Assembly: GCA_963978095.1 (NCBI GenBank)
Contig: CAXBQP010000005.1
Span: forward strand, 1 to 64,000
Length of the DNA stretch: 64,000 bases
Source of the DNA: an uncultured bacterium
GTDB taxonomy: Bacteria > Gemmatimonadota > Gemmatimonadetes > Gemmatimonadales > Gemmatimonadaceae
Reading direction: 5' to 3'
The notes beneath the pieces were generated by a model, which saw only the letters and a program-made list of their open reading frames with translations, had not been told where the DNA came from and searched no databases. This document shows positions 31,724-38,501 of this stretch, piece by piece. Made by a program: the position numbers and the translations under genes. Numbering within the stretch: the first letter of the stretch is position 1; every line of letters starts with the position of its first letter.

Positions 31724-34426
31724 TTACTTCCCTCTGCGCTTCCCCTTGCCCGCCGGCGAACCTGGCCGGAACCCGCCCTTGCCACGCGCCCACGGCGACT
31801 GGTCCGGACGCCCCGAGGCACGCCCACCGCGCGCAGGACGACGCTCCTCGCGTCGGACCTCGTCTTCGGTGAACGGCTTGTCCAATGCGTCCTGGATCTC
31901 CTCCACCGAGTCCGCCTTCACATTCCCGCGCGCGCCGCGCGTGATCGTGAAACGCACGGGACGGTCGAGCAACGGCAATTCCTCGAAGATCAACCCGCGC
32001 GCCACCTTCTCCGGCAACACGAGGCGCACCACCCCCTGCACCTTCCCGTCGCCAACCTCCTCCACTTCATAGTGCATCGGCACGGTGCGATCACGCACTT
32101 CCGCCGCACCCGGCAGCGCATTCAATCGCGCGCGCTCCTCCGGGGACACGAAGTCGTCCGCCCGGAACCGCATCGGCGCCGCGCGGAATCCCTGGATCGT
32201 GGTCACGTTCCCCAACTGCGACTCGTACCACGCCGTGAGCTCCGCCAATCCCATCTTCGGCGTGCGCCCGCCGCTCCGACGATACGCCTCGCGCACCTCA
32301 GCGATCGGCTGCCGGTTCCGCTGCACCGCGGCGTGGTGCGCTTCCTCGCGCGCCATCGCTTCGGCCAGCACGCGCCGGGCGTCAGCTTCCATTCCCGACG
32401 GGAACTCGTGCAACGCCTCACGTTCGCGCTGCAACTCGAAGCCGAAGTACTCCACCCGCCGTTCCATGGCGAGCGGATGGCTCTTGTGGCGCGGGTCGAA
32501 CACCAGCTTGGCCGCACTCGACGTCGCGTACTTCCGGATCAGTTGCTGCGGGACGTTCGTTCCCTCGATCGCCGCGCGCGAGTTGCCATACGCATCAGCG
32601 AAGTAGCGCAGCGTGCCGCTGATCCCGCCCCAGCTCCCGGCCACGCTCGTCTTGCTCACCCGCGCTTCGTGTCCATCGGCGGTGTGCTCGTCGATCACCA
32701 GATCGAACGGCTGATAGCGCGCGAGCAGCTCCACGAACTGCCGCTCCACCGCCTCCGTCACCATCGGCATCACGTCCGGCAACGGGAGCCGCACCGCCCG
32801 GTAGATCGACGCCATCGCGAGTGCGGCATCCTCCACGCTCTTCATGAGCACGCCGCGACGGTCCGCCCACCGCTCCAACGAGGCATCGAACAGATGCCGC
32901 GGCAAGCCGTACACTTCGCCCACATAGCCGCACTTGTGGAACGCCTCGGCGTACACGTTGTACGCGGTGAGGTTGTCGCTCCCGCGGATGATCAGCCCCG
33001 CAAGATCGCGATCCTCGCGCGTCATCCGGTGCAGCGACTCAATCCCGGCCATGACGGCGACATACGGCAGCATGGTATCGTCGCAATGCACGAGCATCTC
33101 GGCCCACGGCCGATCCACCGGCATCGCCTCGACCGCCTTCCCGTACTTCGTGAGTCGCCCGTTCTCGACGATCCCGCGCACCTCGAGGTGTGCCATCGCC
33201 TTGCGATACGCAAGGCGATCGAGCGGCACGGGGAGTTCGAGTTCGTCCGCCCGAACCCCCAGATCCGCGCAGGTGAGTGCCACGCGCTCGCTGTCGCCGG
33301 CGAGCTGGAAGTCGGGCGGCGTCGGACGCAGCGCGTCGAAGGCGATGTCGCGATCGCTCAGAATGAACACGCGCCCACCCGCCACACGCCCGTGGACGCG
33401 CCCGGCCATCTGCAGGATCTCGTTCGCGCCAAGATGCACGCGCGTCAGCACGTTCTTGCCACGATCGATGACATTCGCGAATCGCGTGTCGTCGATCACC
33501 ACCGTGTCGAGCCCCTGGACATTGAGCGCACTTTGGCCGGCCGCGGTCATCGCCAGCAGATACGGCTTGGCCACCGTGCCGTCGAGGAACGGCCGGATCA
33601 CACGAATCGGCTCGCCGCCGTGATAGAACTGCGCGGTGATCCCGCGGAACCGCGCCTGCACGCTCGTCGCCACTTGCTCGACACCGGCACGCGTCGGGAG
33701 GAACACCCCCACGCCGCGTTGCTCCTTGACCACCTTGGCGAGGAATCGATCGTCGAGAAAATGTTGCGGATTCGCGCGCACGACCTCCACATGCGCCGCC
33801 TTGGCGGGATCGAAGGCGCTCGATTCCACCACCGCCTCGGCGTCGAGATAGCGCCGATAAAACGCCGGATCGACGGTGGCCGACAACCAGATGAAGCGGC
33901 ACCCCACGCGCTTCCCCAGCGCGAGACAGAGCTCGAGTTCCGCACTGGTCTGGTGGATCTCGTCCACCACGAGCGTGTCCTGGCGGCGAATATCCCCATC
34001 CTGGAACCAGCGCCGCGCGATGCCGGTGGTCACGATCACCACATTCCAGCTCGGCGACTCGGGCGTGGCCTCGCGCTCGCGGTTGATCACGCCGACGCGC
34101 AACTCGGTGGTGCCGAGCAGTTCCTGCGCGATCGGTTTGACGCTCAGCGTCTTGCCTGTCCCCGTGCCGGCGACGATGCCGAACCCGCGGCGCGGCGCCG
34201 AGAGGGGGGCTTCCAGGTCGTGCGCACGGAAACGTTCAGCGAGCTCGCGCAGTTCAGCGCCACGCGCCTTCCAGAGCACCGTCTCGATGTCGAGGGCGAA
34301 GGCCAGCTCGATCGTCTCGCACGCCGCACGCGTCGGCGCGATGATGATGATGCGGCGAGTCTCCCCCGACCCGACGAAGGCGTCGTGATCGGGGGGGAGG
34401 AACGGGTCGCGGACGTCGCGCAGCAC
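31724..34426 (-). CDS. DExH-box (HrpB-like) SF2 helicase with atypical motif order
   Basis: GTGTGKT, DEIH, SAT, FLPTR, QMAGR motifs; basic RGG-rich C-terminal tail; start GTG 34426 inferred. Confidence 0.88.
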   Translation of the reverse strand: MLRDVRDPFLPPDHDAFVGSGETRRIIIIAPTRAACETIELAFALDIETVLWKARGAELRELAERFRAHDLEAPLSAPRRGFGIVAGTGTGKTLSVKPIAQELLGTTELRVGVINREREATPESPSWNVVIVTTGIARRWFQDGDIRRQDTLVVDEIHQTSAELELCLALGKRVGCRFIWLSATVDPAFYRRYLDAEAVVESSAFDPAKAAHVEVVRANPQHFLDDRFLAKVVKEQRGVGVFLPTRAGVEQVATSVQARFRGITAQFYHGGEPIRVIRPFLDGTVAKPYLLAMTAAGQSALNVQGLDTVVIDDTRFANVIDRGKNVLTRVHLGANEILQMAGRVHGRVAGGRVFILSDRDIAFDALRPTPPDFQLAGDSERVALTCADLGVRADELELPVPLDRLAYRKAMAHLEVRGIVENGRLTKYGKAVEAMPVDRPWAEMLVHCDDTMLPYVAVMAGIESLHRMTREDRDLAGLIIRGSDNLTAYNVYAEAFHKCGYVGEVYGLPRHLFDASLERWADRRGVLMKSVEDAALAMASIYRAVRLPLPDVMPMVTEAVERQFVELLARYQPFDLVIDEHTADGHEARVSKTSVAGSWGGISGTLRYFADAYGNSRAAIEGTNVPQQLIRKYATSSAAKLVFDPRHKSHPLAMERRVEYFGFELQREREALHEFPSGMEADARRVLAEAMAREEAHHAAVQRNRQPIAEVREAYRRSGGRTPKMGLAELTAWYESQLGNVTTIQGFRAAPMRFRADDFVSPEERARLNALPGAAEVRDRTVPMHYEVEEVGDGKVQGVVRLVLPEKVARGLIFEELPLLDRPVRFTITRGARGNVKADSVEEIQDALDKPFTEDEVRREERRPARGGRASGRPDQSPWARGKGGFRPGSPAGKGKRRGK

Positions 34427-34446
34427 GGGGCTCGGAGGCCGGCCCC

Positions 34447-34947
34447 TCAGGGAACCTTCGTGCTGGGCGTCGGAACGGTGACTTGGGGCCCCGTCAGCGG
34501 CTTGGCCGGCCCTAACTCGGTCACGACTTTCACCGTGACGGCCCGGTCCGGCGACTGGAGCGCCGACCGAATGGTCTGCTCCTGCAGCGCGCGACGCGCC
34601 AGCTCCCGCTGCCGCGCGTCGGGATCCGTCGGGAGTTCCCACAGATTCACCGGCTGCGCCGCCCGGGAGCGGCCGTTGGCGCGCGCGTCAATCGGCGTGG
34701 ACCGGACCTCACCGCCGAAGAGCACCGAGGCGCCCTGCGGCCGGGCGCGGATCGCGGCGGCACAGTCGGTGGGTGCCGGCTGTTGAGCGGGGGCCACATC
34801 CTTCAGCCAGATGCGGCACATCCCCGCCGGGGGCATCGCCGACCGTGGAATGAGCGGCTGCGCCGGTTCGGACATGCCCCGATCCTGCGCTCCCAACGGG
34901 AACGCCACCAGGAACGCCATGATCGGCGCCGACCGCTGCAACGGCAT
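34447..34947 (-). CDS. Hypothetical exported protein
   Basis: Signal-like N-terminus; PPAGMCRIW...QPAPTDC Cys-pair motif; start uncertain (34962, 34947 or 34920). Confidence 0.65.
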   Translation of the reverse strand: MPLQRSAPIMAFLVAFPLGAQDRGMSEPAQPLIPRSAMPPAGMCRIWLKDVAPAQQPAPTDCAAAIRARPQGASVLFGGEVRSTPIDARANGRSRAAQPVNLWELPTDPDARQRELARRALQEQTIRSALQSPDRAVTVKVVTELGPAKPLTGPQVTVPTPSTKVP

Positions 34948-35052
34948 GATTCCTCGCACCACGACTCCCTCCCCTCGGTTTCCCGGTTCTCACCGGAGAC
35001 GAACCATCCGCCCCACGCGACACAATCTGCCGAGAATCCGGGGCATTCGGTA

Positions 35053-36138
35053 CTACCCCAGATCCCCGAAACTGATTCCCAATCGACGGGCGGTCCGTAC
35101 GATGTCGTGGTTGGGATCCACCCGTTTCGGGTGCCCAAGCACCTGCGCGATGGGCACGGTCACGATATCCGGCGATTGGAGCGCGACCATATGCCCCCAC
35201 TTGCCGTCTTCCACCGCCTGAACGGCGGCCGACCCGAACCGCGTGGCCAGCATACGGTCGTAGCCGGTCGGCATTCCTCCGCGCTGCAGGTGCCCCAACA
35301 CCAGCGACCGGCACTCCTTCCCGGTCCGTTCCTGGATCTGCTTGGCCAAACGCTCCGCGACGCCTCCCACCCGTTTGGCCTGCCCCGGCAGCGAGGCCCC
35401 CAGCGTGGACTCGCTCCCCCCGCGCTCGAACGCCCCCTCGGCCACCACGACGACCGCAAAATGCCGTCCGCGTTTGTCCCGCTCCATGATCGACCGGCAG
35501 ACCACATCCACGTCGTACGGGATCTCCGGGATCAGGATCACATGGGCCGCACCGGACACCCCCGAATGCAACGCGATAAACCCGGCGCTGCGGCCCATGA
35601 CCTCCATGACGATCACCCGATCATGGCTTTCGGCGGTCGTGTGCAACTTGTCGATGGCTTCCATCGCGGTATTCACGGCCGTGTCGAAGCCGAACGTCGT
35701 GATGGTCCCACTCACATCGTTGTCGATGGTCTTCGGGACGCAGACCATCCGGAGACCGACGTTCCCCATCTGTTGGGCGATCGCGAGGGAGCCATCCCCG
35801 CCGATGGCGATGATCGCGTCGATCCCCAGATTCCGCGCATTGTTGACCAACTCCGCCGATCGGTCGATTTCGCGATACGAGCCGTCGGGCTGCCGCACGG
35901 GATACGAGAACGGGTTTCCCCGGTTCGTCGTGTGGAGGATCGTCCCGCCGAGGTGCCCGATCCCCCGCACCGAATCACGGGTCAGGGGCACCACGTCCCC
36001 CTCGCCGAGCAGTCCGGCGTAGCCCCGCGTGATGCCGAGTACGTGCCAGCCGCGATCGATCGCGGAGAGCACGGCCGCGCGGATGACCGCGTTGAGTCCC
36101 GGGGCGTCACCCCCGCCCGTGGAGATCGCGATTCTCAC
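35053..36138 (-). CDS. pfkA: 6-phosphofructokinase (group III type)
   Basis: TGGGDAPGLN, GGTIL, GGDGS, PKTIDND, EVMGR, LGHLQRGG; GAGGAGG RBS before GTG 36138. Confidence 0.95.
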   Translation of the reverse strand: MRIAISTGGGDAPGLNAVIRAAVLSAIDRGWHVLGITRGYAGLLGEGDVVPLTRDSVRGIGHLGGTILHTTNRGNPFSYPVRQPDGSYREIDRSAELVNNARNLGIDAIIAIGGDGSLAIAQQMGNVGLRMVCVPKTIDNDVSGTITTFGFDTAVNTAMEAIDKLHTTAESHDRVIVMEVMGRSAGFIALHSGVSGAAHVILIPEIPYDVDVVCRSIMERDKRGRHFAVVVVAEGAFERGGSESTLGASLPGQAKRVGGVAERLAKQIQERTGKECRSLVLGHLQRGGMPTGYDRMLATRFGSAAVQAVEDGKWGHMVALQSPDIVTVPIAQVLGHPKRVDPNHDIVRTARRLGISFGDLG

Positions 36139-36368
36139 CTGGTTCTGACCTCCTCGATGAGCGCCAACACTTCCCCGGGCCTGGCGTGCCGCCCGAGTTT
36201 CGATTTCTCGAAGATGGGGACCGCGTCCACACTCACCTCGAACCGGCCACCGCGCGAGGGTTCCATGGACACATCGACATCCGGATAGGTCGCACGAATC
36301 GCAGCTGCCAGACCGACAGCCCGGGGTTCGTAGTTTCAGACGGTGCAGTATTCGATGTTGATGTGCAT
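36135..36368 (-). CDS. SelT/SelW/SelH (Rdx family) selenoprotein, 77 aa, UGA read as Sec at codon 11
   Basis: MHINIEYCTV-U-NYEPRA...GGRFEVSVD...IFEKSKLGRHARPGEV; CxxU motif; UGA at 36338-36336; true stop overlaps the pfkA start (GTGA). Confidence 0.9.
36304..36335 (-). promoter_or_regulatory. Bacterial SECIS-like hairpin
   Basis: 15 nt after the UGA: GCUGUC-GGUCU-GGCAGC stem-loop; the apical GGUCU resembles the E. coli fdhF SECIS loop. Confidence 0.7.
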
Positions 36369-36430
36369 GGCGGGCGGTGCGGGATGCCTGAAATATGCGC
36401 GACGGGCGGCCGGACGGGACGTGACGCCGG

Positions 36431-36706
36431 CTACTTGAGCACCACCACGCCGGTGACGTTCGCGAGCCGCGCGATGGTCGTGTCCTGCTTGGCGACCACG
36501 ACCCGGAGGGAATCCAAGGTGCCCCGCAGTTCGGAGATCTCGTTCTTGGTCGCGTTGACGGCATCGCCCATTTCCAGGACCTGCTGGGCGCGCGCGGCCT
36601 CCCCCTGCGGGGTGCTGCACGAGGCGGAGATGCCGACCGCCGCCGCGAGCAGGAGCGCGCGGCGCACGGAGGGTGGTGAGCACTGGGTGTTCCCGGAACG
36701 CATCAT
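36431..36706 (-). CDS. Small putative lipoprotein with coiled coil
   Basis: RRALLLAAAVGISASC lipobox-like segment, heptad-rich C-terminus; AGGAG before ATG; alternative start GTG 36667. Confidence 0.65.
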   Translation of the reverse strand: MMRSGNTQCSPPSVRRALLLAAAVGISASCSTPQGEAARAQQVLEMGDAVNATKNEISELRGTLDSLRVVVAKQDTTIARLANVTGVVVLK

Positions 36707-36832
36707 GATCTGCTCCTGAGGGCGGAGCGCCGCGCGGTCGCGGCGCGTGGAACGGGTGCGTCGCGCAATCGAACGATGCGACGTCCACTCGCGTCGGAAC
36801 GTATCTCCCTCCCGTACCCGACGGGAGGCGTC

Positions 36833-37267
36833 ATGCGGTGCACCCCATGCTCGGATCGCCGCGGGATCACCTTGCCCGAGTTGGCGGTCGCCTGCACGAT
36901 CGTCGGGCTCACCGCCGGCATCGCGGTGCCGCGGTTCGCGGCGCTGGCCACGCGGCTCATGCTCCGCGGGGGGAGCTACGATGTGCATGCCGCACTCGCG
37001 ATCGCGCAAGCACAGGCGGTGCGCCGGGGGGAACTCGTGGCCTTCGTGGGTGATGGCCCGCGGGGCCGGATTCGGGTCGTCGCGGGCACCGATACCCTGT
37101 TCGCACGTGACCTGGGCGCGCGGGGCCTGACGCTGGCGCTGACCCGCGACTCCATCACGTGGTCCCCGAATGGCCAAGGGTGGGGAGCCGCCAACACCAC
37201 CATCATCGTCTCACGTCGGGGGCTCGCGGACACGATCACCGTCTCGCGCCTGGGCCGCGTGCGGTGA
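36833..37267 (+). CDS. Prepilin-type N-terminal cleavage/methylation protein (GspH/FimT-like minor pilin)
   Basis: RRG|ITLPELAVACTIVG class III signal peptide with Glu at +5; C-terminal VSRLGRVR; GGAGG RBS. Confidence 0.8.
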   Translation: MRCTPCSDRRGITLPELAVACTIVGLTAGIAVPRFAALATRLMLRGGSYDVHAALAIAQAQAVRRGELVAFVGDGPRGRIRVVAGTDTLFARDLGARGLTLALTRDSITWSPNGQGWGAANTTIIVSRRGLADTITVSRLGRVR

Positions 37268-37286
37268 CGCGTCTCTTCCCCGGACC

Positions 37287-38501
<1,215 letters not shown>

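Follow-up and report, generated by a model that had tools for sequence, protein, structure and literature searches.

A DEAH/RHA-type helicase family of Gemmatimonadota and Patescibacteria with a motif Ia-like unit ahead of Walker A

SF1 and SF2 helicases are generally taken to share one fixed motif order, I-Ia-Ib-II-III, which is also built into the profile models with which they are annotated. Circularly permuted P-loop GTPases of the YlqF/RsgA type keep their fold and activity despite a permuted motif order. These GTPases, however, belong to another P-loop class and are circularly permuted over the whole domain, whereas the helicase family described here has a single strand-helix unit placed ahead of strand 1 in RecA1 of an SF2 enzyme. 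In DEAD-box proteins, motif Ia (PTRELA) and motif IV share a strand-P-T-R-helix pattern, and the Ia unit follows Walker A. The best solved relative of our family profile is E. coli HrpA (6zww, 6zwx, 7akp, 8po6, 9ggr), in which strand 2, motif Ia (TQPRR) and a helix (residues 132-146) come after the Walker A helix and in which P130 and R132 of motif Ia are described as contacting RNA (PMC8325345). In the family these elements are missing at that place and an APTR unit is N-terminal, with a P-x-R spacing equal to that of HrpA P130 and R132 (PMC8325345).

The window (the whole stretch of DNA that was analysed, 64,000 nucleotides) holds the member of this family that is mapped in Table 1. Like HrpA, the family has motifs I, Ic, II, III, IV, V and VI together with winged-helix and helical-bundle domains, with a further, weak collinear match over residues 688-873 of HrpA, its connector and C-terminal region; Pfam DUF3418 scores above its cut-off (27.8 against 25 bits) in a long member from Patescibacteria. 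Unlike HrpA, the family is without the three-helix N-terminal domain and is shorter (900 aa versus 1300 aa). HrpB, of which a canonical copy lies in the same genome (G000:C1:81582-84083), is similar in overall length and collinear with the family from Walker A to about residue 794 (Prob 93), one gap excepted, but differs in that the family's motif order is permuted and its motif IV loop reads P-T-R where HrpB has P-G-x. The closest NCBIfam match of the window protein is TIGR01970 (HrpB), with an E-value of 2.3e-14 and 52.7 bits against a cut-off of 546.15; NF008662 (HrpB) gives 29.5 bits against 1053 and NF008348 (HrpA) 13.4 bits (E 0.0082) against 1400, and the protein thus stays below the equivalog cut-offs of both HrpB (TIGR01970/NF008662) and HrpA (TIGR01967/NF008348).

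Table 1. Features of the helicase gene and its product; positions are those of the window, and invariant or conserved residues refer to an alignment of 47 sequences with 26-93% identity.
Feature	Residues	Position	Strand	Basis or remark
Whole gene, DEAH/RHA-type SF2 helicase of 900 aa		31724..34426	minus	GTG start, stop included
N-terminal tail (LRDVRDPFLPPDHDAFV...)	1-23	34358..34426	minus	[LM]R.V.D.[YF]LPPDHDAFV in frame in 70/86 Gemmatimonadota loci
Hydrophobic strand and A-P-T-R (RRIIIIAPTR), motif Ia-like	24-33	34328..34357	minus	conservation; mapping of the HrpB Ia unit
Putative helix after the PTR loop	34-46	34289..34327	minus	conserved C36 and I39; couplings
Second helix	48-66	34229..34285	minus	aligns to HrpB/HrpA residues just ahead of Walker A
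Strand 1 and Walker A / motif I (FGIVAGTGTGKT)	82-93	34148..34183	minus	GTGTGKT, residues 87-93 (34168-34148); G89, G91, K92 invariant
P-loop helix and short loop	94-109	34100..34147	minus	canonical strand 2 / motif Ia / helix 2 missing here
Strand RVGVINRERE	110-119	34070..34099	minus	alignments to Prp16-like and HrpB
Strand NVVIVTTG, motif Ic (TDG) counterpart	128-135	34022..34045	minus	T133, G135 invariant
Walker B / motif II, TLVVDEIH	151-158	33953..33976	minus	DEIH, residues 155-158 (33964-33953); D155, E156, H158 invariant
Motif III, SAT	182-184	33875..33883	minus	S182, A183, T184 invariant
First strand-PTR-helix unit of RecA2 / motif IV	233-258	33653..33730	minus	closest internal look-alike of the N-terminal unit
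Motif V, TAAGQSALNVQG	294-305	33512..33547	minus	T294, G297, L301, N302 invariant
Motif VI, QMAGRVHGR	339-347	33386..33412	minus	Q339, G342, R343, G346, R347 invariant
Winged-helix, helical-bundle (ratchet) and C-terminal region	about 353-900	31724..33370	minus	HrpB/HrpA collinearity

The two RecA-like domains contain motifs I, II, III, V and VI of the DEAH/RHA type, and motifs I, Ib/Ic, II (DEIH), III (SAT), IV, V and VI follow one another in canonical order, Ia excepted, so that the window protein departs from the collinear I-Ia-Ib-Ic-II order of a DEAH/RHA RecA1 domain. The helix of residues 48-66 is equivalent to the helix before strand 1 in canonical DEAH proteins (LP...helix), and the strand RVGVINRERE corresponds to the VGY.VRF hook-turn strand (motif Ib). 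The winged-helix and helical-bundle domains are covered by profile alignments to HrpA (169-613), to a Prp16-like protein as far as residue 528 and, with the Prob of 93 given above, to HrpB; the OB/C-terminal part aligns at low confidence only, and a Pfam search with residues 561-900 returned 0 matches. The initial annotation had called the family HrpB-derived, with divergent motifs V and VI and a possibly altered mechanism. The first label is too specific, since the family profile favours HrpA (E 3e-19 against solved E. coli HrpA versus 4.5e-4 against HrpB) whereas the single sequence favours the HrpB model; DEAH/RHA-type is the safe name. Both motifs are recognisable, with their key residues invariant, and nothing in the analysis points to an altered mechanism.

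The same annotation had placed motif Ia before Walker A, with none between Walker A and the next strand, and here our results agree with it. Only 15 residues (LSVKPIAQELLGTTE) lie between GKT and the strand LRVGVINRE, and for this reason no Ia strand or helix fits after GKT; the usual Ia position is about 26-29 residues too short for a strand plus a helix. Alignment of the family RecA1 profile with 11 canonical HrpB sequences (Prob 97.7, E 2.5e-12) shows a single 29-column gap, opposite ...PWL..RRIVMLEPRRLAARAAA, and the match to solved HrpA splits into two parts (profile 39-77 on HrpA 81-116 and profile 102-529 on HrpA 169-613), between which 24 profile positions face 52 HrpA residues, a deficit of 28. 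Only the second half of the Pfam DEAD model is matched (profile 95-161 of 167; 80-164 in the family member P0134). Low-complexity insertions are found at the site of residues 94-109 in P0032, P0050 and L085. The observation itself is real; the positions first given for the strand, 34351-34322, encode IIIIAPTRAA, and RRIIIIAPTR is encoded by 34357-34328.

The N-terminal strand-A-P-T-R-helix unit (residues 24-46) is conserved as strongly as motifs I, II and III. P31, which sits 56 residues ahead of G87, is invariant in the 47-sequence alignment and R25, R33 and C36 reach 90% conservation or more, while the mean information over residues 24-33 is 3.33 bits per position, compared with a domain mean of 2.55 and with 3.89 for Walker A, 3.60 for DEIH, 3.48 for Ic and 3.39 for SAT. 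The unit reads P-T-R in 426 of the 446 family sequences that bear it, P-M-R in 13 and takes other forms in 7, and the arrangement is family-wide. Of 166 homologous loci from genomes and metagenomes, examined as stop-to-stop ORFs, 164 have the unit in frame; one of the two exceptions begins at a contig end, and in the other an insertion breaks the HMM match in two. Among 360 database proteins, 282 have it in frame, while 58 of the other 78 begin inside the domain and 20 are frameshifted or derive from short gene calls. Together with a 3660-nt contig from an independent run, which covers 33600-34468 with 0 differences, the in-frame loci show that the order is not a product of misassembly. Across the family, the non-canonical motif order defines a group of thousands of sequences, with more than 4000 homologues. 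The loop between the second helix and strand 1 is variable in Gemmatimonadota (residues 67-80) and very short in Patescibacteria-type members.

When six 28-residue units of canonical HrpB were searched against the family profile, five mapped in canonical order (Walker A to 84-93, Ic to 124-143, Walker B to 150-171, SAT to 173-200 and IV to 239-258), and the Ia unit mapped to residues 24-33, upstream of Walker A (score 19.0, E 0.014); after column shuffling of the Ia unit, 1 of 150 shuffles reached this score and 9 of 150 had their top match starting in residues 15-40. The unit's likeness to canonical Ia is nevertheless weak at the sequence level: the reverse search, with the N-terminal unit against the HrpB profile, picked the Ia strand with E 0.37 and a score of 12.9, which falls within the range of column-shuffled units (means 11-13). 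By comparison, the unit is closer to the family's own RecA2 motif IV unit (hhalign score 26.4, E 3.1e-4), a likeness whose score is reached by 0 of 200 shuffles and which holds in both clades. Against the single sequence of E. coli HrpA, the best match lies away from Ia (912-925, E 0.53). With a PSSM of the unit, the top match within a RhlE-like protein of the window (37287-38501) falls exactly at motif Ia (RALILTPTRELCVQVEESFAKY, score 6.4), although this match ranks only 18th of 2,652,097 genome positions and hence indicates a pattern-level likeness, homology being undemonstrated. No matches at E up to 10 were returned by phmmer with residues 18-62 against PDB sequences or by Pfam with the N-terminal 75 and 35 residues; the ESM Atlas held no model, and a search there with the N-terminal part scored 0.75, below noise level, while an HMM and a PSSM of the unit gave noise against the six-frame ORFs of its own genome. 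Transplanting residues 24-40 into the gap raised the HrpB profile score from 83.9 to 95.7, and 0 of 35 grid-matched random segments exceeded 90.4; these controls replace an initial version in which the boundaries had been picked after the fact. The RecA2 strand-PTR-helix unit scores as high in the gap (96.7), and the transplant test is therefore not specific.

Covariation was assessed by mean-field and pseudo-likelihood DCA on 406 unique sequences (Neff80 73), a first run on 146 sequences (Neff80 29) having been dominated by gap artefacts. Both methods couple the N-terminal unit to the helix after the P-loop. In the plmDCA ranking the pair 28-96 is 7th and the pairs 39-100 and 39-93 are 20th and 21st, with 46-101, 41-100, 46-95 and 42-93 also within the top 45, and when RecA2 is included 46-101 and 28-96 stay the top N-terminal couplings. 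This weak covariation suggests that the unit is placed against the P-loop helix. It cannot give the order of strands at Neff80 values of 73-89, since it misses the known core adjacencies (z 2.4 for strand 1-SAT; SAT-Walker B, 1.7; Walker B-Ic, 1.6).

The protein is a DEAH/RHA-type (HrpA/HrpB-like) SF2 RNA helicase, and we consider it probable that non-contiguous stretches of the chain make up its first RecA-like domain. Profile mapping, conservation and the weak covariation argue for an N-terminal unit that occupies the vacant Ia slot, as the strand-swapped topology put forward in the initial annotation would have it. The unit would insert into the RecA1 sheet at this slot and pack against the P-loop helix, and P31 and R33 would be presented to the RNA backbone in the manner of HrpA P130 and R132; were this so, the enzyme, its permuted connectivity notwithstanding, would be predicted to act as an RNA-stimulated NTPase and 3'-to-5' translocase of the ordinary kind. 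By the rules that govern such folds, a return from the Ia slot to strand 1 with the helices on the face of the P-loop helix would be a rare left-handed crossover, so that a simple swap may not describe the actual geometry. As to its origin, the unit may be either a relocated Ia, arisen by duplication and differential loss, or a copy of the protein's own motif IV unit that replaced a lost Ia. That the lost strand 2/Ia/helix 2 has been functionally replaced by an N-terminal motif IV copy and, jointly, that the family has an HrpA-type rescue role is a doubtful combination. If it were true, internal duplication would have served as a patch repair for a motor domain; the Ia-type RNA clamp, attached at one end only, could open or come under the control of the conserved N-terminal tail, and the family would represent an HrpA-type ribosome/RNA-rescue helicase in lineages without canonical HrpA, Gemmatimonadales and many Patescibacteria. 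For E. coli HrpA, the rescue of collided ribosomes is described (PMC11419001).

A rather unlikely reading, but the one among the alternatives to be taken most seriously, is that the N-terminal unit is an accessory element outside the Ia slot, which may take the form of an extra edge strand, a nucleotide-site cap or a small subdomain that arose from a copy of the motif IV unit, and that RecA1 does without Ia, its sheet being one strand narrower. The RecA2 motif IV unit is indeed the best and only significant sequence relative of the element, rather than canonical Ia, and no strand-strand covariation puts the unit in the sheet. In the P-loop topology 2-3-4-1-5 described for helicases (PMC7758060), a right-handed connection would moreover reach strand 1 more readily from the opposite side of the sheet, as reasoned from fold rules. 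Against this stand the exact mapping of the canonical HrpB Ia unit onto the N-terminal element and the balance of one strand-helix unit lost and one gained; five consecutive hydrophobic residues of the buried type and an invariant P-x-R, conserved like the catalytic motifs, fit a core strand with a functional loop better than an accessory strand, and the unit is coupled to the P-loop helix, whose course leads from strand 1 toward the Ia side. Insertion in the same chain meets the handedness problem of the crossover, and one way around it would be a domain-swapped dimer, in which the unit would complete the RecA1 domain of a partner chain. Support for this is only circumstantial and comes from the terminal position of the unit and its attachment through two helices and, in Gemmatimonadota, the variable loop 67-80; with no indication of oligomerisation and with so short a loop in the Patescibacteria-type proteins, we regard such a dimer as improbable.

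Canonical topology, with a degenerate Ia after Walker A and a coincidental N-terminal PTR, could draw on KPIAQELLG after GKT, which aligns to the end of the post-Ia helix of HrpB (RHMAQLLGE). The P-loop helix must start at GKT, however, and the 15 residues before the next strand therefore leave no room for a further strand and helix; the HrpB gap, the HrpA deficit and an N-terminal PTR that is invariant across clades sharing only 26-37% identity likewise contradict this reading, which we hold to be very improbable. The chance that an artefact of assembly or gene calling has joined an upstream part from another gene, or a chimeric contig, to the helicase is next to negligible. Many database gene calls do start after the unit, 58 of 360 proteins beginning inside the domain, but these late starts are gene-caller choices for a gene with a GTG start, and the idea is refuted by the in-frame unit at independent loci, by the contig from another run and by the Patescibacteria-type proteins, which start 4-8 residues ahead of the strand.

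The ORF of the window gene extends over 31724..34642 on the minus strand, the upstream gene on the same strand ends at 34447, and the in-frame GTG at 34426 yields the 900-aa product. Comparison of the 86 Gemmatimonadota loci favours this start; in several of 17 such loci, a stop lies just upstream and the start codon stands 25-26 codons ahead of the strand, as in the window. The N-terminal tail is kept in Gemmatimonadota and is missing from Patescibacteria-type members.

The family is near-universal in Gemmatimonadales, being single-copy in 38 of 39 genomes searched, and is widespread in Patescibacteria. Among the 61 Gemmatimonadota genomes searched, 38 have it and 12 have HrpB, and it is a candidate for taking over the function of HrpA in this phylum, canonical HrpA exceeding the cut-off in 0 of the same 61 genomes. 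In the literature on permuted helicases, on motif order and on bacterial DExH helicases, mainly in its titles and abstract openings, we found no permuted SF2 RecA1 domain, and as far as we found the displacement of Ia is apparently undescribed for HrpA/HrpB-like helicases. We believe that its interest lies in the fact that a family of this size breaks the motif order yet keeps all catalytic residues. It indicates that RecA1, as a motor domain, can withstand rewiring, and it provides a natural system for the effect of motif Ia chain connectivity on translocation. The broken order also accounts for the poor scores with DEAD, HrpA and HrpB models and for the frequent N-terminal truncation by gene callers.

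Some observations on the genomic setting may be added. Neighbours of Patescibacteria-type loci, each seen at one locus, are MFS, AhpC and queuosine-synthesis genes and are uninformative. In the window, no Rfam families or tRNAs were found, PADLOC anti-phage defence models gave 0 families at E up to 0.001 with the window protein, and no promoter-like sites were found. One terminator-like site lies within the helicase gene (33875-33863), fewer than in shuffles. Reads of RNA run X15 fall at 34548-34700 only, which is the gene upstream of the helicase.

The helicase reading frame runs from 34642 to 31724 on the minus strand (ORF scan of the window) and its start was placed at an in-frame GTG at 34426, the upstream same-strand gene ending 20 nt earlier. 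This start is backed by comparison with 86 Gemmatimonadota loci: the N-terminal tail ([LM]R.V.D.[YF]LPPDHDAFV) is conserved and in frame in 70 of them, and several of 17 printed loci share with the window a closely preceding stop and a start codon placed 25-26 codons ahead of the hydrophobic strand. In the resulting protein of 900 residues, a strand-APTR-helix unit precedes Walker A (see table), as the initial annotation had claimed with coordinates that were off by a few codons at most.

Features of the permuted helicase, HrpB profile units mapped onto its family profile, and upstream genes (nt, window nucleotides; aa, residues of the helicase)
Feature	Position	Strand	Details
N-terminal tail	aa 1-23
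RRIIIIAPTR	aa 24-33		strand + APTR
First helix-like stretch	aa 34-46
Second helix-like stretch	aa 48-66		followed by a variable loop, then FGIVAGTGTGKT
FGIVAGTGTGKT	aa 82-93		strand 1 / Walker A
LSVKPIAQELLGTTE			directly after FGIVAGTGTGKT, before LRVGVINRE
LRVGVINRE			between LSVKPIAQELLGTTE and NVVIVTTG
NVVIVTTG	aa 128-135
TLVVDEIH	aa 151-158
SAT	aa 182-184
HrpB Walker A unit	aa 84-93		score 23.8
HrpB Ia unit	aa 24-33		score 19.0, E 0.014
HrpB Ic unit	aa 124-143		score 16.5
HrpB Walker B unit	aa 150-171		score 38.4
HrpB SAT unit	aa 173-200		score 37.6
HrpB motif IV unit	aa 239-258		score 18.7
Protein without Pfam family	nt 34447-34962	as helicase	171 aa; upstream synteny in 40/46 related loci
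Phosphofructokinase	nt 35053-36564		upstream synteny in 38/46 related loci
GspH-like pseudopilin	nt 36776-37267	plus	upstream synteny in 27/46 related loci
DEAD-box helicase	nt 37287-38501		upstream synteny in 23/46 related loci

We assign the protein to the DEAH/RHA-type helicases because of its database matches, its collinearity with HrpB and HrpA and its motif V and VI residues. Pfam DEAD is matched in its second half only (residues 127-186 on profile positions 95-161 of 167, E 2.8e-7), Helicase_C stays below its cut-off, and the NCBIfam models give 52.7 bits for HrpB against a cut-off of 546 and E 0.008 for HrpA. A single-sequence search of solved chains matched Prp16-like and Prp22-like proteins and HrpA from residue ~99 on, while the family profile (alignment A1, 47 sequences) found E. 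coli HrpA as the best solved structure (E 3e-19), with HrpB at E 4.5e-4. Collinearity with HrpB covers RecA2 to residue ~794 (Prob 93), and that with HrpA spans the winged-helix and helical-bundle domains. Motifs V (TAAGQSALNVQG) and VI (QMAGRVHGR), initially described as divergent, both keep the class-invariant residues in A1. A canonical HrpB is also encoded in the same genome (G000:C1:81582-84083, 965 bits on TIGR01970) and thus coexists with the permuted helicase.

Profile-profile comparison of the family RecA1 with 11 canonical Gemmatimonadota HrpB proteins (Prob 97.7, E 2.5e-12) leaves one 29-column gap in the family, facing the HrpB segment that begins in the last part of the P-loop helix, continues through strand 2 and motif Ia (EPRR) and ends early in the following helix. 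The HMM match to solved HrpA comes in two pieces, one aligning profile 39-77 with HrpA 81-116 and the other profile 102-529 with HrpA 169-613, so that 24 profile positions face 52 HrpA residues. Since hhalign against the single HrpA sequence divides the deficit into two gaps (10 and 14 columns) in a low-confidence stretch, we regard the size of the deletion, about 24-29 residues, as firmer than its exact borders. A degenerate motif Ia hidden after Walker A was excluded, because only 15 residues separate GKT from the next strand; together with the gap against HrpB, this spacing bears out the earlier reading that no motif Ia follows GKT. Three relatives (P0032, P0050 and L085) carry low-complexity or repeat insertions (e.g. 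QRATQASPL repeats in L085) precisely at the missing-Ia site, in the loop that joins the P-loop helix to the following strand (window equivalent 34100-34120), which suggests that this loop is permissive.

The N-terminal unit is genuine and conserved throughout the family. Among 8000 sequences scored, 4595 were homologues at E up to 0.001, with 977 representatives at 50% identity and 248 of these at E up to 1e-30. Judged by source names, near relatives are Gemmatimonadota, and the more remote sequences, which share 26-37% identity with the window protein in A1, are Longimicrobiaceae and Patescibacteria (Kuenen-, Ryan-, Falkow- and Uhrbacteria, Paceibacterota, Saccharimonas), whose proteins start just 4-8 residues ahead of the strand. 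An HMM of residues 18-235 recovers the unit in frame in 164 of 166 stop-to-stop ORFs from fetched loci, which excludes a gene-calling artefact, and in 282 of 360 database proteins; of the remainder, 58 begin inside the domain and 20 are short calls or frameshifted sequences. Of 446 sequences, 426 have P-T-R, 13 P-M-R and 7 another form, and residues 24-33 carry a mean information of 3.33 bits, comparable to the catalytic motifs (SAT 3.39, Ic 3.48, DEIH 3.60, Walker A 3.89; domain mean 2.55). Moreover, a 3660-nt contig from a run distinct from the possible source spans 33600-34468 without a single difference, so that misassembly, which had been entertained together with absence of the order from homologues, is excluded by both lines of evidence. 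At the level of sequence, the permutation is firmly established. Within the portions available to us of the openly accessible full-text literature on permuted helicases, motif order and bacterial DExH helicases, we found no description of an SF2 RecA1 domain with permuted motifs. A precedent is known among P-loop GTPases, of which permuted members exist. Late gene calls are common, some of the 58 proteins that begin inside RecA1 starting after Walker A, and probably stem from the true start being GTG and from the unit lying outside helicase models. In a further sequencing run (X4), a 442-nt related-strain contig matches both flanks, with 205 other letters replacing 169 at 34101-34271; it carries a diverged form of the stretch from the second helix, across the variable loop, up to and including Walker A.

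Whether the unit is a relocated motif Ia is most clearly addressed by the unit mapping (see table), in which each 28-residue unit of the HrpB profile was used to search the 900-column family profile. Column shuffling of the Ia unit yielded a score of 19.0 in one of 150 trials, and in nine the top match started in residues 15-40. The reverse search, with the N-terminal unit on the HrpB profile, likewise chose the Ia strand (RIVMLEPRR), at E 0.37 and a score of 12.9, which is within the range of column-shuffled units in such scans. Other results speak against linking the unit to Ia by sequence: the best match of the unit to the single E. coli HrpA sequence is not at Ia, Pfam and PDB sequence searches with the N-terminal fragment returned nothing, and a PSSM of the unit, whose best site within the window's DEAD-box protein is that protein's motif Ia, ranks this site just 18th of 2.65 million positions genome-wide. 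When residues 24-40 were moved by script into the gap on the alignment columns, the score to HrpB RecA1 rose from 83.9 to 95.7 (maximum of 35 grid-matched random segments, 90.4). However, the RecA2 strand-PTR-helix unit scored 96.7 in the same gap, and hence what the transplant demonstrates is that the hole accommodates a strand-PTR-helix unit, and not orthology between the N-terminal unit and Ia.

Elsewhere in the family profile, the unit is in fact best matched by motif IV, the first RecA2 strand-helix unit (residues 233-258, VKEQRGVGVFLPTRAGVEQVATSVQA; 26 ungapped columns, score 26.4, E 3.1e-4), against a mean of 11.3 (sd 2.0, maximum 19.3) for 200 column shuffles and 10.0 for the reversed unit. 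The match holds for Gemmatimonadales rows alone (19.7 and E 0.013, with 60 shuffles reaching at most 18.3) and for Patescibacteria rows alone (25.7, E 4e-4; shuffle maximum 19.2). In contrast, the Ia unit of canonical HrpB lacks likeness to its own motif IV, its best internal match of 9.5 lying below the shuffle mean of 12.6. The family's motif IV loop (window 33653-33730) reads P-T-R-A..E, with a DEAD-box-like T-R, unlike the P/T-G-x-x-E-I of HrpA and HrpB. Because the motif IV match is significant and has no counterpart in HrpB, the N-terminal unit may derive from an internal copy of motif IV rather than from a relocated Ia; both origins predict the same structure and are not distinguishable by the present data.

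Direct couplings from 406 unique family sequences (Neff80 73) link the N-terminal unit to the helix after the P-loop in both the mean-field and pseudo-likelihood versions (pairs 28-96, 39-93, 39-100, 46-101, 46-95, 41-100 and 42-93), with an element-level z of 5.0, a shared third rank among 91 element pairs. The helix after the P-loop is also coupled to the second helix (z 5.9), which in addition couples to strand 196-202 (z 5.6). With RecA2 added (L 461, Neff80 89), 46-101 and 28-96 still came out on top, and consistent couplings from the unit to RecA2 were absent. Known strand adjacencies were not recovered (z 1.6-2.4), so that at this low power the couplings say nothing on strand order. Given the 2-3-4-1-5 P-loop topology described for helicases in the accessible text of PMC7758060, and since the P-loop helix runs from strand 1 toward the Ia side of the sheet, the couplings fit the Ia slot better than a place beyond strand 1. 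We consider it moderately probable that the N-terminal unit occupies the Ia slot of RecA1. By fold rules, a return connection from this slot that stays on the face of the P-loop helix would have the rare left-handed crossover, and the real structure may depart from expectation.

In the HrpA-RNA structure, as far as the available text describes it, contacts to the RNA backbone come from motif Ia (P130, R132), the Ib hook-turn (R159) and Ic (T174) (PMC8325345), and P31 and R33 of the window protein share the P130/R132 spacing. As all NTPase residues are intact, the most likely activity would be RNA-stimulated NTP hydrolysis with 3'-to-5' translocation. The permuted helicase is single-copy in 38 of 61 Gemmatimonadota genomes (37 of 60 without the unpublished genome G057, which leaves our claims unaffected): 10 of 10 plus the window's genome in its own family, 27 of 28 in the sister family and 0 of 22 in other families at E up to 1e-30. 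Canonical HrpB was found in 12 of the 61 genomes searched and canonical HrpA over cut-off in none. These counts, the better match to HrpA and a DUF3418 match in one long Patescibacteria member lead us to speculate that the family may stand in for HrpA, which in E. coli rescues collided ribosomes (PMC11419001, available portion).

The conserved upstream synteny (window 34447-38501) does not suggest a specific pathway. Conservation does not extend downstream, where DUF1259, gluconate 2-dehydrogenase subunit 3 and GMC oxidoreductase recur in 0-2 of 46 loci. PADLOC models detected no defence-system signature in the window protein; two long Patescibacteria members of 1400+ aa (P0139, P0136) have C-terminal extensions with weak LmuB matches (E 2.7e-5 and 1.8e-4). 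At a Patescibacteria-type metagenome locus (L108:5291-6724), an ORF just downstream of a short family member (about 690 aa) shows homology (E 1e-7) to the C-terminal region (698-856) of the long-form member P0275, and the gene therefore appears to be split into helicase core and C-terminal domain in some Patescibacteria. Similar unannotated downstream ORFs of 424-480 aa are present at two further loci (L109, L111).
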